Below the pieces are notes generated by a model. It worked only from the letters and a program-made list of their open reading frames with translations. It ran no database searches and had not been told where the DNA came from. DNA of 64,000 nt from an uncultured delta proteobacterium (GTDB lineage: Bacteria; Desulfobacterota; Desulfobacteria; Desulfobacterales; Desulfosalsimonadaceae): the NCBI GenBank assembly GCA_963826785.1, contig CAWGYD010000010.1, forward strand, positions 246,434 through 310,433, in the 5' to 3' direction. Both the position numbers and the translations under genes were made by a program. This document shows positions 1-14,019 of this stretch, one piece after another (the first letter of the stretch is position 1; the number at the start of each line of letters is the position of its first letter).

Positions 1-760
1 TCACCACGTTGGTCAAGACATTGGTCCCGTATGCGGGCAAGCCCTGGCCGGTGACCGGGTGGGATTTCAATCCCTGCACAAAGATCTTGTTGGCTTGCCG
101 GAACTTATCCGGATCCCTGGGGGGACGCATTTTCGCGCCCGTATCATCCAGCACGATGACTTTGACGCCCTTTGATCCCATGACCGCGCCCACACCCCCT
201 CTTCCGGCATGGCGGGTGGGCCGCAGTTCCATATCGGTGCAGGCAATGGAAGCCGCGCCCAGCTTCATCTCCCCGGCCTGTCCGATGGACATGCAGCAGA
301 TATTTTCCCCGTATTCCTGCTTCATTTTTTCCACCAGGTCGTAGTTGCCCAGGCGCTTCAAGCTGTTGTCCGGGGAGATGGTGACCCCGTCCTTGTTGAT
401 GAAAATCTTATACAGCGTATCATCTGCGGGTTTTCCTTCGATGACGATGGCCGCATAACCGAGCCGGGCCAGAACCTGCGAGGGCATGCCGCCGGCATTG
501 GCTTCCTTGATGCCGCCGGTGAGCGGGCTCTTGCACCCCACCGACAGCCGGCCGGACATGGCGGCCGTGGTGCCGCTCAGCAGTCCGGGGGCAAAGACCA
601 GCCGGTTGTCCTGGCTTAAGGGATGACACAAGGGAGGAACCTCTTTGGAAACAATGGCCGAGGTGAGTCCCCGGCCGCCCAGACCGGCGTACTTGTCCCG
701 GGATTCGGTTTTGAAGGCGGGGCTGTCCGGCCCCATGTTGATTCTCAGAATCTTGTCCAT
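1..760 (-). CDS. aor: Aldehyde:ferredoxin oxidoreductase (W/Mo-pterin), 5' part; runs off the window start
   Basis: Manual translation from ATG 760: MDKILRINMG...YAGLGGRGLTS...NRLVFAPGLLSGT...SGRLSVGCKSPLTGGIKEANAGG, typical of the AOR N-terminal domain; GGAGGTG RBS upstream. Absent from the ORF track because it has no stop in the window. Confidence 0.9.
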   Translation of the reverse strand, partial: MDKILRINMGPDSPAFKTESRDKYAGLGGRGLTSAIVSKEVPPLCHPLSQDNRLVFAPGLLSGTTAAMSGRLSVGCKSPLTGGIKEANAGGMPSQVLARLGYAAIVIEGKPADDTLYKIFINKDGVTISPDNSLKRLGNYDLVEKMKQEYGENICCMSIGQAGEMKLGAASIACTDMELRPTRHAGRGGVGAVMGSKGVKVIVLDDTGAKMRPPRDPDKFRQANKIFVQGLKSHPVTGQGLPAYGTNVLTNVV

Positions 761-978: not shown

Positions 979-1341
979 TCAATCTTTGAAGAAAAGATAC
1001 AGCGCCAGTGCCACCAGGATGAACGCAAATATCCTTTTGAACTGGGCCGTGGAGACATGCTCCACCAGCCGGGCCCCGAACTGGGCGCCGATGACCCCGC
1101 CGGCCCCCAGCATCAGCCCCACCCGGTAGTCCACGTTGGCCAGCTTGTTGTGGGCGACCAGGGCGGATATGGAGATCACCAGGATGGCCAGAAAGGAGGT
1201 GCCCACCGTCTTCTGGGCGCTAAACCCGAGAAACAGCAGAAGGGGCACCATTAAAAACCCGCCCCCCAGACCGGTAAAGGACGCCCCGATGCCGGTCAGG
1301 ATGCCCAGAGCCACAAATCCGATCCCGCTGATGAGTTCCAT
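979..1341 (-). CDS. TSUP (TauE/SafE) family membrane protein, half-size (120 aa)
   Basis: GLGGGFLMVP and GTS motifs; about four hydrophobic helices. Confidence 0.85.
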   Translation of the reverse strand: MELISGIGFVALGILTGIGASFTGLGGGFLMVPLLLFLGFSAQKTVGTSFLAILVISISALVAHNKLANVDYRVGLMLGAGGVIGAQFGARLVEHVSTAQFKRIFAFILVALALYLFFKD

Positions 1342-1518: not shown

Positions 1519-2094
1519 ATGAAACTGGTCAATTATTTATCTGAAATCGATGCGGGCCGCTGCAGCGGCTGCCGGAAATGCGAGACCGTCTGTCCCGCTG
1601 GCGCCATATCCGTTGAAAACCGGTTTGCCCGGGTGGATGCCGGCCGCTGCCTGGCCTGCACCAAGTGCTGGCATCTGTGTCCGGAGGATGCGGTGACCAT
1701 GGTTGAACGCAGCGAAGAGATGATGGTGGGGGTGGATTTCGACGAGGTGGATGAAACCGCCGTGGCCGAATTGTGCCAAAAAGCCCATGTCTACCCCGAG
1801 CAGTTCGTGTGCGCCTGCACCCTGACCCTGGCCAAGGAAGTGGCGGCCGCCATCATCAAAGGGGCTTCCACCCCCGAGGAAGTCACCGCCGCCACCGGGG
1901 TGCGCTCGGGCTGCGCCATCTACTGCATGGGGGCGATTCTGCGGATGCTCAAGGCCGCGGGCAAACACCCGGTGCCGCCCAAAAATCACCGATGGTACGA
2001 CCTGTCACTCTCCCTCTGGGATGTAAAAGATCAAATAGCGGAGAAATACCCCCGCTATTATCTGGCTGAAGACCGTGACGAAATGCACGAATAA
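1519..2094 (+). CDS. 2x[4Fe-4S] ferredoxin fused to a BFD-like [2Fe-2S] domain
   Basis: CSGCRKCETVCP and CLACTKCWHLCP; VCAC...GVRSGCAIYC; start taken at ATG 1519 (MKLVNY). Confidence 0.85.
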   Translation: MKLVNYLSEIDAGRCSGCRKCETVCPAGAISVENRFARVDAGRCLACTKCWHLCPEDAVTMVERSEEMMVGVDFDEVDETAVAELCQKAHVYPEQFVCACTLTLAKEVAAAIIKGASTPEEVTAATGVRSGCAIYCMGAILRMLKAAGKHPVPPKNHRWYDLSLSLWDVKDQIAEKYPRYYLAEDRDEMHE

Positions 2095-2101
2095 TTGATT
2101 C

Positions 2102-3556
2102 ATGACCGATTTTTTCCATAGAAGCCGCCACGGAAAAGCGGCCGCGCCGCCTGAGGTGATGCCCTCTTGCATGTGCCCGGAACCGGCCATGCGGGCAGCC
2201 GGTCTTTCCGGCATGACCTCCCTTTCCATAACCGATCTGTTTCCTGAAATGCGCAAGGGGTTTGTTCAAAAGCAGGGGGTCGCCGAAATCCGAAAATCCG
2301 CCGAAGCAGCCCTGGCCGGGGTGGAAATGGGGATGATCCTGCCCGAGCACCGGGTCAATATTCTCTGCTCGGAGCATGGATTCTACCTGCTGGAGGGGGA
2401 CCATTACCTTCAGATGCTGCTGGCCATCCGGGATGCGGTGGAAGAGCGGACCGGGTGCCAAAACATCCGGCTGCGGGTGGCGGCCGGCATGGGGTCTCGC
2501 GAGTCGGAAGAAATCATCGAATATTTCCGCATCCGGGAAAAATTCAACGGCAGGGTAACGGGCATGAGCGCCTTTGACCGCGGCGTTCCCATCGATACGC
2601 AGATCGGAACCCTCTACGGCCTGGCCGCGGCCTATGATGCCGACTGGATCATCCATGCCGGCCACGAGGAACCCCGGGACCTCTATTTTTACCGGATGAT
2701 CGACCGGGCCCTCAAGGCATTTGCCATGTCCTATGCCCGGTTTGAAACCCGGTCGGTCTACCACGGCAACTTCGGCAACAGAAGCTGCGCCTTTATCCAG
2801 CGGGCCATCTTCGACGCTCCCTTCGTGCAGGAAAAGTTCGCCTTCGGCGTTTTTATGCGCATGTCGCCCGCCGGCATCACCGGGGTTTCAGCCGACAATG
2901 ATCTCGATCGCCTGGGGGAGCACCTCACCATCGACATCCTGCGGGATTTTGGAAAAATGCTGCACCTGCTGGCGGACATCGACGAATGCATCGTGATCTT
3001 AGACGGCGGCCGCTACGGCTACTACATCCACGCCGGCGGCATCGTCTTCGGTGCCCTGGAAAACGCCCAGTATGATGCATTCGATCTTTCCCGGCCCGCG
3101 GCTTTCGGCTATTACGACATGCTCTCAAAGATGCGCAACGGAACCGATGCCCAGATGGATCATGTCATGAACGTCAACCCGGCCATCAAGGCCGTGATCT
3201 TCAACCAGGCCTGGCCGGGCATCCCCATGGCGGGGCTCACCCTGGATGTGTCCACCATCGTGGTGGGAGACCAGCAGGCAGCCGCCATGAAGCTGGATGC
3301 CGCCAATCCCGCCCTGATCGACCTGGCCGAAACCGTCCCCACGCTAAAACAGGCCCTCGAACTGGCCATTCAAGAGACGGGAACCGATAAGGTGCTGGTG
3401 TTTGACGGCAGCTTCGGGCACATCACCGTCAGCCCCTTACTGGCCCAGACCCTCATGGCAAAAGCACCGGAGATCAGCCGCAGGGTGGAAACAGAGCTGC
3501 TCCCCCTCTGGCTTTCCCAGCGGGGGATCGATCTAAATACCGCTAAGCGCGTTTAA
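2102..3556 (+). CDS. Uncharacterised 484-aa protein, distant lactate racemase (LarA/DUF2088/DUF362)-like
   Basis: Long ORF in an operon; segments AAGMGSR...GVPIDT..GTLYG...AYDADWIIH...ALKAFAMSY recall the AMGSHG...AYEADGII...LMKMMAIG pattern of LarA-like proteins (recognised by eye). Confidence 0.5.
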   Translation: MTDFFHRSRHGKAAAPPEVMPSCMCPEPAMRAAGLSGMTSLSITDLFPEMRKGFVQKQGVAEIRKSAEAALAGVEMGMILPEHRVNILCSEHGFYLLEGDHYLQMLLAIRDAVEERTGCQNIRLRVAAGMGSRESEEIIEYFRIREKFNGRVTGMSAFDRGVPIDTQIGTLYGLAAAYDADWIIHAGHEEPRDLYFYRMIDRALKAFAMSYARFETRSVYHGNFGNRSCAFIQRAIFDAPFVQEKFAFGVFMRMSPAGITGVSADNDLDRLGEHLTIDILRDFGKMLHLLADIDECIVILDGGRYGYYIHAGGIVFGALENAQYDAFDLSRPAAFGYYDMLSKMRNGTDAQMDHVMNVNPAIKAVIFNQAWPGIPMAGLTLDVSTIVVGDQQAAAMKLDAANPALIDLAETVPTLKQALELAIQETGTDKVLVFDGSFGHITVSPLLAQTLMAKAPEISRRVETELLPLWLSQRGIDLNTAKRV

Positions 3557-3566
3557 ACCCCTTGCC

Positions 3567-4370
3567 ATGAACGACATTCGCGACAATCTCTTCGGCCCCG
3601 TTTCAGACCGGATCTATGCGGCCGCCATCATTGCCGAGGAACCCGGCATTCTGGCCGGATCGGCAGCTGCGGCTGAAAAGGCCCGTGAACTGGGCCTGAA
3701 GATGATATCCTTTAAACCGGCGGGCGCCCGAATTCTTCAAGGTGAGACACTCGGCGCATTTTCCGGATCGCCATTGCAACTTGCCCGGGCCGGGGACCTG
3801 CTGGCCGGATGCATGGCCAAGCCGTCCGGGATTGCCACCGCTGCCCGGCAATTTGTGGAAAAAGCCGGCAGCCGTCCAAAGATCGTGTGCGGGGCCTGGA
3901 AAAAGATGCCCGCCCCGATCAAGGGGATCATCCGGGAGGCCGTTGCTGCCGGCGGTGCGGGCATCCGGGTCAGCGAGGCCCCCTTTGTCTACCTGGACAA
4001 AAATATGGTGAAGATGCTGGGCGGCATCCGGGCTGCACTGGATGCTGCAAAAAGAATAGAGGGCCGGGTGCGGGTCATCCAGATCGACGGAAAAATGGAA
4101 AACATTTCCGAAGAAGCCGTCCTTGCCGCCCGTGGCGGTGCCGGCATCATCTTCATCGATTCCGGCGTTATCACGGATATAGACCGGGTTTCACGCGCAC
4201 TGGCACATGCCGGCCTGCGCTCAAGTGTCTTTCTGGCCTACGGGGGCGGCATCACCCTGGCCGATATGGACCGGATCTGTGACACCGACGCGGATATCGT
4301 GGATGTGGGCCGGGCCATCATCGATGCACCGCTTCTGGATATGCGCCTGGAGGTGGCGGCAGATCAATGA
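3567..4370 (+). CDS. Quinolinate phosphoribosyltransferase (NadC/ModD)-like protein, divergent
   Basis: IIAEEPGILAG, SGIATAARQFV, GAGIIFIDS, AYGGGITL, DIVDVG and LDMRLEV follow the QPRTase layout; canonical TRKT is replaced by AWKK. Confidence 0.8.
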   Translation: MNDIRDNLFGPVSDRIYAAAIIAEEPGILAGSAAAAEKARELGLKMISFKPAGARILQGETLGAFSGSPLQLARAGDLLAGCMAKPSGIATAARQFVEKAGSRPKIVCGAWKKMPAPIKGIIREAVAAGGAGIRVSEAPFVYLDKNMVKMLGGIRAALDAAKRIEGRVRVIQIDGKMENISEEAVLAARGGAGIIFIDSGVITDIDRVSRALAHAGLRSSVFLAYGGGITLADMDRICDTDADIVDVGRAIIDAPLLDMRLEVAADQ

Positions 4371-5245
4371 CCCATCGGCTGCTTGAAAAAACCGAACTCT
4401 GGATCCGCGGCATCGTGCTCGAGGGGGCCGATTTAAATGAGATCGCGAAAGCGGTGGCCGATATCCTGGGGATTTCACCCCGCCATGTGCTGGTCACCGA
4501 TTATCAATGCCCGGATCTGGCCCTGGATGTACTTGCCCAGACCATCGATCCGGCACATTTTGCCGGCCGGAAAAATGCACTGTTTGAGCGCCTCTTAAAA
4601 ATCGCCGGGGTGAAAATCTCGTCCGATGCCGATATCGGCGCAAACGGGATGCTGGGATGGCTCGCGGCGGACCCGGAGCAATCCGGTGCGTCTGTTGCCC
4701 GCTCGGCGGAAATGATCCGGGAAATCAATTCCCGCATTCAATCCCGGGCCATTGTCTTTTCCACGGGAAGCGAGGTGGCCGCCGGCCAGATCAGGGACAC
4801 TAACACCCCTCTGATCTGCGCATTGCCTGGAAAAGATCGGCTATACGTCAACCCCCGGCCCCACCCTCCCCGACGACCGCAACCGCATTGCCGCAAAACT
4901 GAGACAGGCGGCCGATGAACAGGGATACGGGCTGATCATCACCACCGGCGGGGTGGGCGCTGAAGGAAAAGACCACACCATAGAAGCCGTCCTCACGGTA
5001 ATCCCCGATGCAGCCGCCCCCTATGTGTGTCATTTCGAGGTGGGCACCGGCCGGCATGTCAAGGACGGGGTCCGGATCGCCGCCGGTTGCCGGGGGAAAC
5101 GCTGATCATCGCGCTTCCGGGACCCAATGATGAAGTGAGACAGTGCATGACCGTCATTGCCGGGTTTCTCCCCCATGACCCCGATCCTGCCCGCCTGGCA
5201 GACGCACTGGCCGCCTGCCTGCGCCTCAGATGGCACCATCCTTAA
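4367..5245 (+). CDS. Molybdopterin-binding (MoCF_biosynth/CinA-N-like) domain protein with N-terminal extension; two frameshifts
   Basis: STGSEVAAGQIRDTN, then after a shift near 4826 LEKIGY...LIITTGGVGAEGKDHT, then after a shift near 5097 ETLIIALPGPNDEV; ATGA overlap with the upstream gene. Confidence 0.75.
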
Positions 5246-6687
5246 ACGTGATAAATTTTGTCCGCGCCCGTCTTTGGATCCAAATAGGTGATCACGCTCT
5301 TATAGGATCTTAAATCCACGACAGCGGTGGCTTTCAGGGGGTCATCGGTCCAGGAGATGACGACCTGGTCCTCGGGGCAGTCTTCGATCCTGAATGTGCC
5401 GTTAAATACCGGGTACTCGGACCTGAATTTCATCAGCGCCATCAATCGCTTCACGGCCGGTTTTTCCATGGCCGCGCCGACCTCCTCCAGGGTGTAGTTG
5501 TGGCGGTTGATGAAGCGGCCGTTTCGGGTGCGCTCCACCAGTTGGATGTCGTTCTCGCCGGCCAGCAGACCCACGTAGTAAACCTGGGGGATGCCCGGGG
5601 CGAAAAACTGGATGGTCCGGGCGGCCAGATAGGCGTCGTCGTTGTTTTCCAGGGCCGAATAATAGGTGCAGTTTACCTGGTAGATGTCCAGGTTGTGGTA
5701 CTCGGCTCCCGAATACATCCGCTTCATGTTGGACCCTTTTTCATAGAGTCCGTTCAAGGTCTTATCGATCAGGTCATCGGACATCAGCCCGCGCACATCC
5801 ACCACGCCGATGCCGTCATGGGTGTCCAGCGTGGTGATCTGCTTGCGGGGGCAGATCTCCAGCCATTGCTTGAGCTCCTTGTGAGTATGGTGATACAGGG
5901 TGTGGATCAGCAGCATGGGCAGGGAAAAATCGTAGCACCAGTACCCTTTTTCCGAAAGCTTGAGCTGGTAGCGGTGATGCTCGTGCACCTCGGGGAGGAT
6001 GTCCGCGCCGAAAGGACGAACATATTCTGCCAGCCACCGGATGACATCCCATATCTCCGGCTCCTCGAAAAAGCAACGGGTGCCGATCTTCTTGATCACA
6101 TAGGCGATGGCATCGAGCCGGATCATCTTTGCCCGGGTCCGGGCCAGGTTGATCAGGTTGTAGCGAAGAAAACTACGGGTGACCGGGGAGCCGATATCGA
6201 TATCGATCTGCTCGGTATCGAACGTGCACCACACCTTTTCCCGTGATCCGTCCTTTCGGTCCTGAACGATATAGGGCGGACGGGGCTTGCGCGTATACAC
6301 CTTCTCCAGCTCCGCATCCGTAATCGGCTCCTTGCGCAGCTTGTCAAAGGTGAGAAACATGTCCGCATATTCGGACTTGCTGCTTTTTTCCGTAAAATCC
6401 TGGTAGTAGTGGGATTGCCGGGAGATGTGGTTCACCATGAAATCGAGAATCAGATCGAATTCCGCCCCGATCAACTCCAGGTCTTTCCAGCGCCCGAATC
6501 GCGGATCCACCTCTTCGTAGGTCTTGGGCGCAAATCCCCGGTCGCTGCTGGAGGGATACACCGGCAGGATGTGGACCCCGCCGATGACATCGGCCAGGTA
6601 TCGCTTCAGCACGTAATGGAGTTCGGCCAGGTTGTCTCCCAGGCTGTCCGGGTAGGTGATCAGTTGCACTTTGTTCTGAATGGTCAT
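5242..6687 (-). CDS. gtfA: Sucrose phosphorylase (GH13_18)
   Basis: NKVQLITYPDSLG, SDRGFAP, IRLDAIAY, LPEVHEH, TLDTHDGI, loop NLDIYQVNCT. Confidence 0.88.
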   Translation of the reverse strand: MTIQNKVQLITYPDSLGDNLAELHYVLKRYLADVIGGVHILPVYPSSSDRGFAPKTYEEVDPRFGRWKDLELIGAEFDLILDFMVNHISRQSHYYQDFTEKSSKSEYADMFLTFDKLRKEPITDAELEKVYTRKPRPPYIVQDRKDGSREKVWCTFDTEQIDIDIGSPVTRSFLRYNLINLARTRAKMIRLDAIAYVIKKIGTRCFFEEPEIWDVIRWLAEYVRPFGADILPEVHEHHRYQLKLSEKGYWCYDFSLPMLLIHTLYHHTHKELKQWLEICPRKQITTLDTHDGIGVVDVRGLMSDDLIDKTLNGLYEKGSNMKRMYSGAEYHNLDIYQVNCTYYSALENNDDAYLAARTIQFFAPGIPQVYYVGLLAGENDIQLVERTRNGRFINRHNYTLEEVGAAMEKPAVKRLMALMKFRSEYPVFNGTFRIEDCPEDQVVISWTDDPLKATAVVDLRSYKSVITYLDPKTGADKIYHV

Positions 6688-6773
6688 GCGTCCATTTCTT
6701 TCATCGGGCGGTTTGCATTTTTCAAATAGGCCCTTTTGTGTAGATCCGTTGCGGTGCAAATCAGGAAAAATTT

Positions 6774-8942
6774 TTATCCGAGAAAACGGTAATGGTCCAT
6801 TCCTTCCAAAATTCCGGCGGCGCAGGCTTTGTCGGCGAAATAGACGTATTTGGCGCCTTTTAATTTTTTGAGTTCCGGACTGAAGTTGCCCACCACTACA
6901 CCGCGCGGTTCGCCCCGGAGCATTTCCTCGTCATTTCCCGAATCCCCGCAGACCAGAAAGGCGGACAGGGGCACTTCCCACTTGTAGCTCAGGTAGCGGA
7001 TGGCTTTTCCCTTGGAGGCACGGTACGGCAGGATATCCACGAACTGCTCGTGGGAATAGACCAGGGTATATCGGCACTTGTTTCCCACCAGGCAGTTATG
7101 AACCTCGGTGATCCGGTCTTTTCCCGGGTCGATGTTGTAGCTGACCTTGAATTTGCGCTGGGCTTCTTCCGCCTGGTATTCAAGGAATTTAAACCGCTTC
7201 AGCAGATCGCGCACTTTCTTCCGGTCCCACCGGTCCGCGATGTGGGCTTCCCACCCTTTGTCGTACTCCAGATCGGGTCCATAGTAAATTTCAGTCCCCA
7301 CCGACGCCACGATAACGTCCGGCGGCGCCACCCGGTATTCTTCGAGAATGTCTACCGCCGAATCGATGGTCCTGCCGGTGGACACACCGAAACCGAGCTT
7401 CTGACGATGATCCGCCACCGCCTGGAGCAGGGGCTCGAGCCCGGCGTTTTCTTCCCCGATCAGGGTATTGTCGATGTCGGTGATCAGAAACCGCTCCACG
7501 TTCACCAGCCGTTTTCCCACGGGTTTGCCGTTTCCGGGGGTAATGCCGGCCGCTCCTTTTTCATTGGCCAGAGGGACGGCCGCTTTCATGTAGGCATCCG
7601 CATGCTGTTCCCAGGCATAGTGCTTCCTGACGTTCATGATGCCGTTTTTGGAATATTGGTTCCAGAGCGTTTCATCGGTCAGGATTTTCCGGATCGCTCC
7701 CGTGATGGCCTGATGATCGTTCGGGTCCACCAGGATTCCGTTTTCGCAATTTTCGATGATGTCCCGGGGGCCGCCGTCGTTGGTGGCCACCAGGGGCAGT
7801 CCGGTGGCGGCGGCCTCCAGCAGGGTCAGGCCGAAGGGCTCGGTCCATGCGGCATTGACGAAAACTCCCCGTTTGCCTGCGGCGATGCGGTAGAGTTCGG
7901 GCACCTCGGATGCGACGTCGTGCTCCTTGGGAATGGCCAGTTTCCCATAGAGGTCATACCGGTCCATGTCGAGCAGCATCTGGGTGAGGACCTGCTTTTC
8001 GTTTTCCTCCATGTCGTCGATGTCCTTGCGGATGCCGGCGAATACGGCCAGGTTGGCCATGGCCTGCAATTCATGATCCTCACCATAGGCCTTTACCAGC
8101 CCGGTGATGTTTTTGCGCTTGTCCGGCCGGCAGATCGCCAGGATCAGCGGCTTGTCCGGATACATGAGAAACCGCTCCAACTGGTTTAAAAGAGTGGCCT
8201 GGGCGTATTTTTCCAGTTCGGATTTTTCGAATTCCGGAAGCCGGTCATGGTAATACGGGTAAAACCGCTCCAGGTCGATTCCCGGCGGGATGACCCGGTA
8301 TTCGGGAAATTCCGAGTTGCGGTACATGCCGTACTGGTTTGAAATTTCCTGGCGGGTGCTGGTGACGATCAGGTCCGCATTCCGGATGATCCGCTCTTCG
8401 ATGGAAATCCGGGTATCCATTCGATAACTTCTGGAGATTTCCTTTTCCGGCATGCCGTCGTTTACAAGCTTCTGTTTCTTGGGCCTTCCCAGGCTGTGGC
8501 CGGTAAAGGCAAAGGGGACGCCGAAGATGCGGGCCAGCTCCATGGCCACGTATCCGGCGTCCGGATAATGGCCGTGGACGATATCCGGCAGCCGGTTTTT
8601 CTTGATGAATTTGATGGTTTTGTCGATGAATTCATCCAGATGCGGCCACAGCAGTTCCTTTCGCATGTATTTTTTCCCGCCGCACTGGATCCGGATGACT
8701 CGGCATTTATCATCGACTTTCGACACCGGCTGGGCATAATCCGGCGAGACCGAGGGATCGTCGATGAGCCGCGTAAACAGATCGACCTGGCAGACATCGT
8801 CCCTGCGGCACAGATTTTTCACCAGTTCGAGCACATACGTCACCTGCCCGCCCGTATCGGCATCCCGCCCCAGTTCCGGGTTCTCCGGCCGGATCAGGCC
8901 GTGAATGGAAAACATCTGAATGTATAGTTTTTCTTTGGCCAT
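6774..8942 (-). CDS. sps: Sucrose-phosphate synthase with C-terminal HAD phosphatase (SPS-SPP bidomain)
   Basis: SIHGLIR..ELGRDADTGGQVTYV, HGHYPDAG, EPFGLTLLEAAA (GT4); ITDIDNTL, STGR, SKGKAIRYL, GDSGND (HAD-IIB). Confidence 0.92.
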   Translation of the reverse strand: MAKEKLYIQMFSIHGLIRPENPELGRDADTGGQVTYVLELVKNLCRRDDVCQVDLFTRLIDDPSVSPDYAQPVSKVDDKCRVIRIQCGGKKYMRKELLWPHLDEFIDKTIKFIKKNRLPDIVHGHYPDAGYVAMELARIFGVPFAFTGHSLGRPKKQKLVNDGMPEKEISRSYRMDTRISIEERIIRNADLIVTSTRQEISNQYGMYRNSEFPEYRVIPPGIDLERFYPYYHDRLPEFEKSELEKYAQATLLNQLERFLMYPDKPLILAICRPDKRKNITGLVKAYGEDHELQAMANLAVFAGIRKDIDDMEENEKQVLTQMLLDMDRYDLYGKLAIPKEHDVASEVPELYRIAAGKRGVFVNAAWTEPFGLTLLEAAATGLPLVATNDGGPRDIIENCENGILVDPNDHQAITGAIRKILTDETLWNQYSKNGIMNVRKHYAWEQHADAYMKAAVPLANEKGAAGITPGNGKPVGKRLVNVERFLITDIDNTLIGEENAGLEPLLQAVADHRQKLGFGVSTGRTIDSAVDILEEYRVAPPDVIVASVGTEIYYGPDLEYDKGWEAHIADRWDRKKVRDLLKRFKFLEYQAEEAQRKFKVSYNIDPGKDRITEVHNCLVGNKCRYTLVYSHEQFVDILPYRASKGKAIRYLSYKWEVPLSAFLVCGDSGNDEEMLRGEPRGVVVGNFSPELKKLKGAKYVYFADKACAAGILEGMDHYRFLG

Positions 8943-9854
8943 TTACTTCCTGTTAACCAGTTTGAGATAGGGTTCGTAAAAGTCGTGCGCGTCCGGCACG
9001 GCCCCGGCAATGGTGCAGATATCTCCGGCAAAGCGCGATGCAGTCTCAAGGGTCTGTTTCGATGGCCATCCGTTTAAATAGCCGACCACCAGCATGGCCG
9101 CATACGCATCCCCTGCCCCCACCGTATCCTGCACCTGCCGGATTTCCGGGACCCCCGCCTCATATAGGTCCTCCGGCGTCACCAGCATGCTTCCCGAACT
9201 GCCCCGGGTCACGGCCATGTTCCGGATCCCGAAGCGCTCCATCAGCAAGCCGGGCAATTGCTGGCGGGTTGCCTCCGGCGCAAACATTTCCCCCAGCAGG
9301 ACCAGTTCGTCCGCGTTGAGTTTCAGATAATCCGTGTGCCCCAGGGAAGCGTGGATGATCTCTTTAGAATAGGCATTTTGCCGCAGGTTGACATCATAAA
9401 AGGCAACTGTGGCCGCATCTTTGTTCTCAAGAAATGCCTGGAGCCGCTCCATCGCTTTTGCGGTGCGCTGCACCAGGGTGCCGAAATAGATCAGTTCCAC
9501 CCCGTTGCCGCCGGAAAGTGAATCCGGGTGATCCGGCAGTTCGATCCGGTCATAGGCGACATTTTCTACGATATAAAATTCATGCCCCCCGGTTGCGTCC
9601 GGTGTCACCTCCACCCGACCGGTGGGATAATCCGGGTCCTTCTGTATCCAGCTGATATCAAATCCCCGCTGCCGGAGCCGGTCCAGAATTTCATCTCCCT
9701 TCTGATCCGCCCCCACCCGGGATACGAAACGGACGGGCACCCCCATCTGCTTCAGGTGATAGGCAAAATTAAACGGCGCTCCGCCCAGCCGCTCATATTC
9801 GGGGAATATATCCATCAGTATTTCACCGATGACGATGATCACGAAAACCTCCAT
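8943..9854 (-). CDS. PfkB family carbohydrate kinase, probable fructokinase
   Basis: GGAPFNFA, DVNLR, KLNADEL, DTVGAGDAY; abuts sps. Confidence 0.88.
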   Translation of the reverse strand: MEVFVIIVIGEILMDIFPEYERLGGAPFNFAYHLKQMGVPVRFVSRVGADQKGDEILDRLRQRGFDISWIQKDPDYPTGRVEVTPDATGGHEFYIVENVAYDRIELPDHPDSLSGGNGVELIYFGTLVQRTAKAMERLQAFLENKDAATVAFYDVNLRQNAYSKEIIHASLGHTDYLKLNADELVLLGEMFAPEATRQQLPGLLMERFGIRNMAVTRGSSGSMLVTPEDLYEAGVPEIRQVQDTVGAGDAYAAMLVVGYLNGWPSKQTLETASRFAGDICTIAGAVPDAHDFYEPYLKLVNRK

Positions 9855-12309: not shown

Positions 12310-12903
12310 TTGGCCATCGTTGTCGGCCGGAACAGACCCACCCGATGATACCTTGCTTTATCCAAAGTGCGGCAAGCCTCTTTTTCATTGTCTAAATCAA
12401 ATAAAAATGCTAACTATTCATACAGTTATTATCAGATCAATTTTTAAGCGACCGGTCCTTTTCGTCTTAATATTTATTCATTCTTTCTGGTGATCCTTCC
12501 TTTTTTCGTGATAAACAGAAACTGCTTAATAACTTAGCTGCAAGGGAAATGGATGATGATTACAAGAAACATAAGGTATGCAGGATGTGGATATGAGGGA
12601 AAAGTCGAAGCCCACGATACTGCCGGTGTTTACTCAGGAATCTAATATATTTAAAACTCTTGGTAAGGATTCCGCCTCGGGTTTCCTTAACTTCTTAACT
12701 TGAATCAGGCAATTCCAAGGACAAGTCGCAAATTAAATGCCTACGAGCTTTTGAGGGCCCATTCTCGGCCATGATGAATTTCGCTGACCTCGCTCTCGGC
12801 ACACCCATTGATAATAAAAAGACCTGCCATCCTTGCAAACGTGGGTTATGTTGGAAGTCATTTTAAACCACCCAACACAGAGCCAAAACCAAGGAGGCAG
12901 GTC

Positions 12904-14019
12904 ATGACAGAGAATAGCACATTTATTGGTATGGACGTCCATAAAAATTCCATCGATATCGCCATTGCGCAAACCGGCCGTGACGGAGAGATCCTGCACT
13001 ACGGCCAAATAGACGGCACCCTTGCAGCAATAGACAAGGTGGTTCGAAAATTGGTCAGCAAAGGCAACCGGCTGCATTTTGTGTATGAGGCCGGCCCCTG
13101 CGGATACCAGATCTACCGCCACCTCACCTCCCGGGGCTTCGATTGCTCGGTAGTGGCTCCTTCCAGGATCCCCAAACCCAGTGGCAAGCAGATCAAAAAC
13201 GATCGCCGGGATGCCCTGATGCTTGCCCGCTTGCATCGCGCCGGCGAACTGACCGCTGTTCACGTTCCCCTGGCTGAGGACGAGGCCGTCAGAGATCTGA
13301 CCCGAGCCCGGGAGGATGCCAAGGGCGATGAGAAAAAAAGCAAACAGCGTCTGCTGGCCTTTTTGCTTCGCAGCGGCATCCGCTATACGGGCCGGGCATC
13401 GTGGAGCCAGGCCCATATGCGCTGGCTGTCCGACATTAAGATGCCCCACCGGTCACAGCAGGTTGTCCTGCAGGAATATATCGGCACCCTGAACCAGTGC
13501 AAAGATCGGGTACAGCGGTTAACCGATCAGATCCGGCAGCTGTTGCCCGAATGGCAACTGTTCCCGGTCGTTCAAGCGCTTCAGAGCATGCGCGGTGTTT
13601 CAATGATCGTGGCGGCCACGACGATTGCCGAAATCGGCGACCTGAAACGATTTGAAAATCCTGCCGAGCTGATGAGCTACCTGGGCCTGGTGCCGTCGGA
13701 ATCTTCCAGCGGCCAAAAGATCAGGCGCGGCTCGATCACCAAGACCGGCAATGGCCATGTGCGGCGTGTATTGGTTGAGGCTGCCTGGGCCTACCGGCTG
13801 CCGGCCAGAGTCAGCCGGGTATTGCTCAAACGGCAAGAAGACTTGCCACAATCTATTTGCGACATTGCATGGAAAGCCCAACTCCGACTATGTTCGCGCT
13901 ACCGGCACCTATGGGCCAAAGGCAAAGTGAAACAAGTCATCGTAACTGCAATCGCAAGAGAACTTTGTGCTTTCATGTGGGCGATCGCCAATGAAACAAA
14001 AGTTCCAGTAGCGGCATAA
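12904..14019 (+). CDS. IS110 family transposase/recombinase (DEDD RuvC-like + Tnp domain)
   Basis: IGMDVHK, VYEAGP, KNDRRDA (DEDD); YLGLVPSESSSG serine loop; ITKTGNGHVRRVLVEAAW; AAGGAGG RBS. Confidence 0.96.
   Translation: MTENSTFIGMDVHKNSIDIAIAQTGRDGEILHYGQIDGTLAAIDKVVRKLVSKGNRLHFVYEAGPCGYQIYRHLTSRGFDCSVVAPSRIPKPSGKQIKNDRRDALMLARLHRAGELTAVHVPLAEDEAVRDLTRAREDAKGDEKKSKQRLLAFLLRSGIRYTGRASWSQAHMRWLSDIKMPHRSQQVVLQEYIGTLNQCKDRVQRLTDQIRQLLPEWQLFPVVQALQSMRGVSMIVAATTIAEIGDLKRFENPAELMSYLGLVPSESSSGQKIRRGSITKTGNGHVRRVLVEAAWAYRLPARVSRVLLKRQEDLPQSICDIAWKAQLRLCSRYRHLWAKGKVKQVIVTAIARELCAFMWAIANETKVPVAA

Follow-up and report, generated by a model that had tools for sequence, protein, structure and literature searches.

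The window analysed here is a stretch of 64,000 nucleotides from an uncultured delta proteobacterium of the Desulfosalsimonadaceae (assembly GCA_963826785.1, contig CAWGYD010000010.1, positions 246,434 to 310,433), and near its beginning lies a run of four closely packed genes on the forward strand, which we refer to as the LarX module. The first (1519..2094) codes for a ferredoxin-BFD subunit of 191 aa with the Pfam domains Fer4 (two [4Fe-4S] motifs) and Fer2_BFD ([2Fe-2S]). The second (2102..3556) codes for LarX, a 484-aa protein assigned as a distant member of the LarA superfamily from its predicted model and from Foldseek, VIA-align and hhalign comparisons. The third (3567..4370) specifies a 267-aa protein with the fold of quinolinate phosphoribosyltransferase (QPRTase), recognised by its QRPTase_N/C domains, a nadC model score below cut-off, its fold, its residues and its linkage to LarX. 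The fourth (4367..5245) belongs, by its motifs and fold matches, to the MoeA/COG1058-type MoCF proteins, has an extra N-terminal domain of about 125 aa and carries two frameshifts. Gaps of 7 and 10 bp are followed by an ATGA overlap, so that the tight coupling described in the initial annotation is confirmed, as are the motifs AWKK and IRVSEAPFVYLDKN of the QPRTase-like protein and those of the MoCF domain. The assignment of the fourth gene to the MoCF family also stands, but its reading as an intact single gene does not, the two frameshifts having been missed.

A scan of GTDB with LarX gave 97 coding stretches, and the locus counts below refer to the best 80 of these. Of the 80 loci, 76 have the ferredoxin-BFD gene, 59 the QPRTase-like and 58 the MoCF gene; all four genes occur together in 54, and in 37 of the 43 loci whose flanks reach 5.5 kb or more on each side. 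This is more than would be expected by chance, and bears out the suggestion that the genes are conserved as a group. The hosts belong to Desulfobacterota, Bacillota and archaea and include sulfate reducers, syntrophs, clostridia, gut Oscillospiraceae and bacilli. Among 251 genomes sampled without bias from the window's order, LarX was found in five and the QPRTase-like gene in four, always beside LarX; the fifth LarX sits at a contig edge. The module is rare and patchy and is inherited as a unit. LarX was absent from the plasmid collection searched. The four genes represent a real, conserved and apparently undescribed system, as had been proposed; the catabolic role to which the furan-cluster and mhpD/E/F context of its relatives points had been overlooked. 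Three loci contain tandem paralogous pairs of ferredoxin-BFD and LarX genes (three pairs in L012; also L013 and L015) that belong to different subclades within one locus, which suggests that several substrates may be served. In L013 the pair is doubled while the QPRTase-like and MoCF pair remains single.

LarX gave no Pfam or NCBIfam match at E≤0.1; it has 233 relatives at E≤0.001, and a Pfam domain was seen in none of the 120 matches listed. Sequence searches of the PDB, with the single protein and with a profile, found no LarA, so the relationship to LarA becomes visible only by folding. With the AlphaFold model (pLDDT, the predicted local distance difference test, 92.2), Foldseek placed lactate racemases first (E 3.9e-9), VIA-align returned LarA with Z 19.4 (root-mean-square deviation 4.0, 342 residues aligned) against 6.9 for the first unrelated row, and the two top clusters in the Atlas are automatically named LarA-like N-terminal domain proteins. 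When 207 LarX sequences were aligned by hhalign to a LarA-family set of 23, led by a canonical LarA, the result was E 1.4e-4 over residues 33–222. The LarA link, originally recognised by eye, is thus upheld by the Foldseek and VIA-align results.

The cofactor of LarA is contacted by R75, K184 and H200, and D72, H108, H174 and K298 are catalytic, as described in PMC7583248. In LarX, K205 aligns with K184 and is kept in 205 of 207 sequences, and H221 aligns with H200 and is kept in all 207. The position of H174 is taken by R192 (206/207) and that of H108 by G131, which varies between Gly and Arg. Because K205 and H221 are kept while H108 and H174 are gone, LarX probably binds a nickel-pincer nucleotide through the two conserved residues but is probably not a racemase.

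With regard to the source of this cofactor, larB lies in 14, larC in 13 and larE in 10 of the 80 loci, and a nickel permease gene in three. LarX occurs in five of 45 Alicyclobacillaceae genomes, and in all five the sole larB is about 2.2 kb away, while canonical LarA is absent from four of them; larE was found in all five other LarX genomes tested. The window's own genome holds larB (at a contig end) and larC, both above cut-off. A larE-like match in that genome was set aside, as it reads by eye as a TtcA-type protein. Since larB is present in 14 of the 80 loci and larB and larC elsewhere in the window's genome, the standard larBCE nickel-pincer pathway is the better-supported source, ahead of the wholly new heterocycle nucleotide cofactor envisaged in the initial annotation. 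A modified or salvaged pincer cofactor is possible. Some LarX clusters (L023, L033, L034, L042) contain a second, different LarA homologue, and the one in L042 (13288-14652) likewise lacks the catalytic histidines when aligned to LarA. A conserved, unannotated gene of 142 aa (L079 13858-14283 and eight other loci) is found near lar genes and LarX clusters, and gave no NCBIfam match at 1e-15.

The ferredoxin-BFD protein, with 12 cysteines invariant across 63 sequences, is the predicted electron-input partner of LarX. The complex of the two proteins was modelled with a score of 0.89, compared with 0.00 for the best control; at least 83% of contacts are shared between runs, and the partner has a pLDDT of 88 or more. 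Of 157 solved pairs 116 reached the mark applied to such scores, as did 2 of 215 mismatched ones; these figures are only roughly valid here. In the model, LarX residues 213–228, the helix bearing H221, pack against BFD residues 99–102 and 130–139 in the cysteine region, an arrangement that supports a putative electron wire from the [2Fe-2S] region to the LarX nickel, and with it the earlier proposal of a redox-coupled LarA-like enzyme.

The QPRTase-like protein scores 86.7 bits with the nadC model (TIGR00078), for which the cut-off is 198.4. When 48 sequences of its family were compared with the NadC of the window's genome, K112, R134, N146, D198 and the glycine loops for the 5'-phosphate were found to be kept, whereas TRKT is changed to xWKK, KDNH to DKNY and the Arg of the ER motif to an acidic residue. 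The acidic ligands of magnesium pyrophosphate (Mg-PPi) are replaced by Lys; the roles of the QPRTase active-site residues are those that we take them to have. The site fits binding of a mononucleotide with a different base, apparently without a classical Mg-PPi site. The window's genome has a canonical nadC at another place, and 28 of 50 LarX genomes carry one as a gene of its own, none being seen in the other 22; the earlier view that the protein is not a housekeeping NadC is confirmed both by the nadC of the window's genome and by the family-wide change of the quinolinate-pocket residues. Because in the 251 genomes it occurs only beside LarX, the protein is probably dedicated to the LarX module, with a role in cofactor handling or salvage.

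In the MoCF protein the acidic triad (E137, D170, D203), G195 and G196 are invariant in 44 of 44 intact relatives; the triad and the GG pair are defined for MoeA and COG1058 in PMC3680494. GGVGAExKD is invariant and departs from the COG1058 signature GG(L/I)GPxxxD. Fold searches matched CinA, MoeA/gephyrin E and MogA alike, the top Foldseek match being 3kbq. For the unassigned N-terminal domain all Atlas matches were at 0.83 or lower, and residues 1–123 were barely covered by the fold search. The QPRTase-like and MoCF genes stay constant while the genes downstream differ between clades, and we lean slightly towards regarding the two proteins as factors for maturation, salvage or remodelling of the cofactor, the least secure element of our reading.

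A quick tree divides the family into two clades, clade I with 32 loci including the window and clade II with 48, and all links to mhp genes, BenE, M24, lar genes and HmfF fall in clade II. Recurrent neighbours of the module are genes for a 2-oxopent-4-enoate hydratase-family protein (mhpD family, 33 clade II loci), 4-hydroxy-2-oxovalerate aldolase (mhpE, 27) and acylating acetaldehyde dehydrogenase (mhpF, 27), together with IclR, BenE, an M24 hydrolase and UbiD. The best PDB match of the neighbouring UbiD is 6H6V with 582 bits, the next family reaching 214; 6H6V is PtHmfF, for which activity on furan dicarboxylate is described in PMC8988006. A UbiD at least 50% identical to this HmfF-type neighbour is encoded in 10 of 50 LarX genomes, in nine of them within or beside the LarX cluster, and HmfF is also linked to the module at loci of Moorella, Dethiosulfatibacter, Oscillospiraceae and deltaproteobacteria. 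For the neighbouring transporter of the major facilitator superfamily (MFS), the three top plasmid matches that were inspected all lie within hmf-type clusters, whose HmfA/D/E labels were given by family and position.

A reference for comparison is Geobacillus kaustophilus HTA426, which degrades furfural according to unpublished data cited in PMC3223595, where hmfABCDE is given as the core furoate pathway. In Aneurinibacillus (L044+L106) the gene order is larB, larC, nicT, ferredoxin-BFD, larX, QPRTase-like, MoCF, mhpD, mhpF, mhpE, larE, MFS, aldehyde dehydrogenase (ALDH), alcohol dehydrogenase (ADH), R2-like ligand-binding oxidase (R2lox) and HmfF. The proteins shared with the G. kaustophilus cluster are 79% (HmfF), 77% (ALDH), 70% (ADH), 64% (MFS) and 61% (R2lox) identical, and the LarX module occupies the place of hmfABCE; the genome contains no HmfA above 33% and the operon no ligase match. 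The R2lox gene accompanies both types of Gram-positive furan cluster (L106 13733-14518, L107, L112, L172, L173). HmfF is found in six of the 45 Alicyclobacillaceae genomes: four have LarX about 12 kb away, hold larBCE and lack an HmfA ortholog, and the other two have HmfA (70% and 63%) but no LarX. Genomes G303 and G306 share the order UbiX, HmfF, R2lox, MFS, ALDH, ADH, ligase, beyond which G306 continues with hmfA and G303 with larE, larB, larC, ferredoxin-BFD, larX, QPRTase-like and MoCF. No HmfA was detected at E≤1e-120 in the five LarX-bearing Alicyclobacillaceae genomes, nor above 28% in the 80 loci and six extensions. As the module stands in the slot of known furoate genes in relatives, it probably opens furan-type rings by a new route that does not need oxygen, and we consider it very probable that the clade II enzyme acts on furoate or its coenzyme A (CoA) ester.

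HmfF-type genes also occur in other settings. In gut-type contigs (L134-L139, L141) lar genes adjoin HmfF, in most with UbiX, and, unlike in L152, the four-gene module is missing, which looks like deletion or relocation. At L122-L126, L129, L131 and L132 an HmfF-type decarboxylase gene is combined with a sodium:solute symporter gene, hmfA and the LarX module both being absent from the vicinity, and there may be a third downstream route at these loci. Seven peat-type HmfF loci have neither the module nor hmfA. The M24-fold protein (L077 12827-13936 and 22 further clade II loci) lacks the metal ligands of Xaa-Pro peptidases and often adjoins HmfF; it is perhaps a furoyl-amide or enol-ether hydrolase.

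On balance, we favour a reading in which the module is a two-subunit, ferredoxin-driven nickel-pincer ring-opening oxidoreductase, accompanied by two cofactor-handling proteins, on a catabolic route for 2-furoate-type heteroaromatic acids. Judging from gene context, 2-furoate would arise through oxidation of the aldehyde by aldehyde:ferredoxin oxidoreductase (AOR) or by ALDH/ADH, with decarboxylation by HmfF where present. Through K205 and H221, LarX would hold the nickel-pincer nucleotide that larBCE supply, and in the modelled complex the ferredoxin-BFD protein would relay two electrons from one [4Fe-4S] cluster through the other and the [2Fe-2S] cluster to the cofactor, where a hydride would form. 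Transfer of this hydride to ring C5 could then break the C5–O bond by 1,4-elimination, giving 2-hydroxypenta-2,4-dienoate/2-oxopent-4-enoate as free acid or CoA ester. The mass balance agrees: adding 2H to furoate gives C5H6O3, which is also the formula of 2-hydroxypenta-2,4-dienoate. This compound is the substrate of MhpD. In clade II the context suggests that MhpD, MhpE and MhpF would yield pyruvate and acetyl-CoA, while in clade I, including the window, the 2-oxo acid might be decarboxylated to an enoyl-CoA and passed to enzymes of the beta-oxidation type, or a related ring acid might be used instead. The QPRTase-like protein and the MoeA/COG1058-type pyrophosphatase would mature, salvage or modify the pincer nucleotide. 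The full proposal is more tentative, namely that single electrons are turned into a hydride for reductive cleavage of furan, that this is the missing genetic basis of anaerobic furfural and furoate degradation, and that the partner proteins salvage or remodel the nucleotide by adding or removing ribose-phosphate or AMP.

The window copy itself requires separate consideration. The neighbours of clade I genes include MaoC pairs (12 loci), AOR (6), 2-oxoacid dehydrogenase E1 (5), PaaK-type ligases (5) and HpaB/AbfD-family proteins (4); annotation of 75 neighbour proteins, among them 57 of the 111 candidate open reading frames (ORFs) from 13 clade I loci, yielded AOR, CoA ligases and acyl-CoA enzymes but no other substrate marker that recurs. 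For the clade I UbiD the nearest match is E. coli UbiD, which offers no clue to a substrate. AOR genes are present in 9 of the 80 loci, and the window's AOR was closest, in a comparison among loci made with no background control, to that of L017 (57.5%), followed by the HmfF-cluster loci L145/L146 (47.6%); it is a possible supplier of acid substrate and of reduced ferredoxin. Elsewhere the window's genome encodes a protein with a 66% match to the AbfD-type neighbour. Neither HmfF nor mhp genes accompany the sister clade to which the window copy belongs; the chemistry is probably shared by clade I, but the exact substrate may not be. We think it rather probable that the window enzyme carries out this chemistry with furoate or a closely related heteroaromatic acid as its substrate; that this substrate is furoate itself is possible but doubtful.

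Several observations weigh against this reading and must be set beside it. With respect to LarX, the hhalign probability of 53% is modest support, the LarA GFSGG loop is not kept, and R75 of LarA is aligned to F94/Y95, which do not preserve it, although another invariant Arg may stand in. The predicted association with larBCE, evident as linkage at the level of loci, disappears at the level of genomes, where larB is present in 44 of 50 LarX genomes and in 217 of 251 background genomes, the same frequency; we have therefore dropped genome-wide co-occurrence as evidence. The closed chromosome G013 (locus L067) has the full cluster, in the order IclR-QPRTase-like-MoCF-mhpDFE-ferredoxin-BFD-LarX-BenE-M24, yet no larB, larC or larE, and these three genes are also missing from three metagenome-assembled genomes with the full cluster. 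G013 is possibly a pincer-cofactor auxotroph or a salvage case, and salvage of the cofactor by the QPRTase-like and MoCF pair would explain why it has kept the module.

With respect to the furan route, the mhpD-family protein scores below the dmpE cut-off and nearly equally with the model for the decarboxylase dmpH, the Alicyclobacillus cases are kin and probably go back to one acquisition, and the proposed scheme does not account for the M24 hydrolase found at 23 of the 48 clade II loci. Among 24 HmfF-type metagenome loci of at least 8 kb, module genes were found in nine, hmfA in none and neither in 15, counts that are biased because the query was taken from a LarX locus. On the side of the window, mhpD/E/F or larB occur in none of the 32 clade I loci, the three clade I UbiDs are only 26–27% identical to HmfF, the pocket residues that are uniform in clade II depend on the subclade in clade I, and the window LarX is 41–45% identical to the clade II proteins compared. 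The window's genome gave no match to mhpD, mhpE, BenE or HmfF and, with 87.8% completeness and larB at a contig end, no larE above cut-off. The frameshifts in the window's MoCF gene also belong here.

Alternatively, the same ferredoxin-coupled pincer chemistry might be directed at pyrrole-2-carboxylate, thiophene-2-carboxylate or a substituted furoate, most plausibly in clade I with subclade-specific substrates. Pyrrole-2-carboxylate plus 2H and water minus ammonia would give the same C5 oxo acid, PtHmfF tolerates pyrrole-2-carboxylate according to PMC8252502, and the M24 hydrolase without metal ligands in 23 of 48 clade II loci, the clade I pockets that differ by subclade and the two to three ferredoxin-BFD–LarX pairs per locus in some genomes would all be compatible. 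However, the HmfF, MFS, ALDH and ADH proteins of clade II are 64–79% identical to those of a furan cluster, the module and HmfA exchange at a single position, and clade I shows no recurrent marker of another substrate, so that we regard this alternative as unlikely, though the strongest of those considered.

A further possibility is that the accessory proteins act on the substrate: a ring acid such as a pyridine carboxylate would be phosphoribosylated, the nucleotide reduced or opened by LarX, and the carrier recycled by the pyrophosphatase. The retained 5'-phosphate loops, K112, R134 and D198 of the QPRTase-like protein would suit this role, as would the persistence of the module in a genome without larBCE and the absence of a CoA ligase from most clade II loci, where another form of activation may be needed. 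It is nevertheless improbable, as the furoate ring has no nitrogen that could be ribosylated, Lys stands in place of the acidic Mg-PPi ligands, and the QPRTase-like and MoCF pair is constant across clades and single-copy where LarX is doubled. An initial reading built on a picolinate or dipicolinate N-ribotide was lowered once HmfF and the furan cluster appeared, and the literature search gave nothing relevant to it.

LarX might instead work oxidatively, as an analogue of the furoyl-CoA dehydrogenase HmfABC, removing a hydride from the hydrated ring and handing electrons to the Fe-S subunit on the way to 2-oxoglutarate. It does take the position of hmfA, an HmfD-like CoA ligase (44–52%) adjoins the module in Alicyclobacillus loci, and some of the hosts belong to what we take to be aerobic genera. 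Yet an oxidative product would not need the mhpD/E/F genes of 33, 27 and 27 clade II loci, the loci have no ortholog of the thioesterase gene hmfE (best 42% over 166 aa) and the Aneurinibacillus operon no ligase match, and we consider this explanation very improbable. Least credible of all is an ordinary LarA-type 2-hydroxy-acid racemase beside a NadC for alternative NAD synthesis and a molybdenum-cofactor gene, for although the folds match LarA, QPRTase and MogA/MoeA and canonical nadC was not seen in 22 of 50 LarX genomes, both catalytic histidines are missing from LarX, nadC is separate in the window's genome and in 28 of the 50, and the QPRTase-like gene is never without LarX in the 251 genomes.

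The MoCF gene of the window (4367..5245) is not one open frame, its motifs being spread over three frames with breaks near 4820–4830 and near 5091, while the gene is single-frame in 58 of 58 relatives. One soil-run contig (214 nt, 9 other letters, depth 2.6) has an extra G behind 5091; for the first break, the contig search found none spanning the site. A test for frame changes in 32 genome bins gave changes in two, both in the MoCF gene and in no other gene. Either the assembly has a local error at this gene or the window's copy was broken recently. A promoter and terminator scan of the operon stayed at chance level.

Upstream of the operon and divergent from it lie a half-size TauE/SafE-family membrane protein gene (979..1341, reverse strand; Pfam TauE), without a match in the loci of the 80 relatives, and the start of the AOR gene (1..760, reverse strand; 577 aa; Pfam AFOR_N/C), which extends beyond the window. 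The genome region to the left (L162 11096-18760) contains the divergent AOR gene followed by a 197-aa gene without assignment and genes for a ThiF-family protein, a PAS hybrid kinase and a nickel superoxide dismutase. A sucrose cluster (window 5242-9854, reverse strand) converges on the operon and encodes a GH13 sucrose-phosphorylase-like protein, a sucrose-phosphate synthase/phosphatase fusion and a PfkB kinase; it is ordinary, but looks uncommon for a relative of sulfate reducers. Downstream of rubrerythrin and CobO genes is a transposase-like ORF (window 12808-14019), presumably of IS110 type as judged by eye.

A 2011 review names only two Desulfovibrio strains as anaerobic degraders of furfural and expects alternative routes in anaerobes (PMC3223595), and the module is a concrete candidate for an anaerobic furfural/furoate route. 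If this is true, nickel-pincer chemistry, so far racemisation and hydride shuttling, would come to include Fe-S-coupled net reduction and cleavage of a C–O bond in an aromatic ring, and a furoate route free of oxygen and molybdenum would be useful in detoxifying lignocellulose hydrolysates and in the breakdown of furandicarboxylic acid (FDCA) and its polyester polyethylene furanoate (PEF). We found no published account of the module or of genes for anaerobic furoate cleavage in a search whose scope left out subscription journals, bioRxiv supplements and patents. The terms ferredoxin, quinolinate, molybdopterin and furan are absent from the main texts of PMC13524815 and PMC11770544 and from two supplements of PMC7583248, and those supplements of PMC13524815 that were searched contain nothing relevant.

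Among known systems, LarX resembles most closely the LarA racemases and epimerases (LarA, Mar2, GntE; PDB 5huq, 6c1w, 9eia), with which it shares the fold, the anchoring Lys, the nickel-ligating His and the linkage to larB/C/E and nickel permease. It differs in lacking H108, H174 and R75, in its identity of 10–15%, in being missed by Pfam Lar_N, and in its near-constant Fe-S partner gene, and it would carry out net redox chemistry instead of racemisation. The single-histidine LarA homologues (9q3j, 9q3k) also lack an equivalent of H174, but according to PMC12611868 they have Asn at this position and keep the first His, whereas LarX has a near-invariant Arg (206/207) and neither His. The known pincer enzymes, as given in PMC13524815, are LarA racemases/epimerases, NphT and an ornithine cyclodeaminase that depends on NPAD; NphT is a hydride transferase and a precedent for intermolecular hydride transfer by a pincer cofactor, and the cyclodeaminase, as cited there, for a dinucleotide pincer variant, both having folds other than that of LarX. 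The QPRTase-like protein shares with the NadC/ModD family the fold, the 5'-phosphate loops and one Lys, Arg and Asp of the active site, but has xWKK for TRKT, DKNY for KDNH and an acidic residue for the ER Arg, and its score falls well short of the nadC cut-off. With COG1058/CinA-N and MoeA domain III the MoCF protein has in common GxE, the acidic triad and TGG; unlike COG1058 it has GGVGAExKD, an extra N-terminal domain and a GRHxK motif, and among the loci examined it occurs only in the LarX module.

At the level of the pathway, the 2-furoate route of HmfABCDE (Trudgill) has the same upstream hmfF, UbiX, MFS, ALDH and ADH genes and uses the same slot in the cluster as the LarX module, and in the six HmfF-bearing Alicyclobacillaceae genomes tested HmfA and LarX are mutually exclusive. 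HmfABC is a molybdenum-dependent C5 hydroxylase leading to 2-oxoglutarate, as set out in PMC3223595, whereas LarX would be a nickel-dependent reductase leading to 2-oxopent-4-enoate. The folds are already known, and the novelty would lie in the proposed enzyme class and pathway. In its workings the LarX module resembles a pincer enzyme of LarA fold coupled to a ferredoxin, and it falls outside the racemases, NadC and HmfABCDE.

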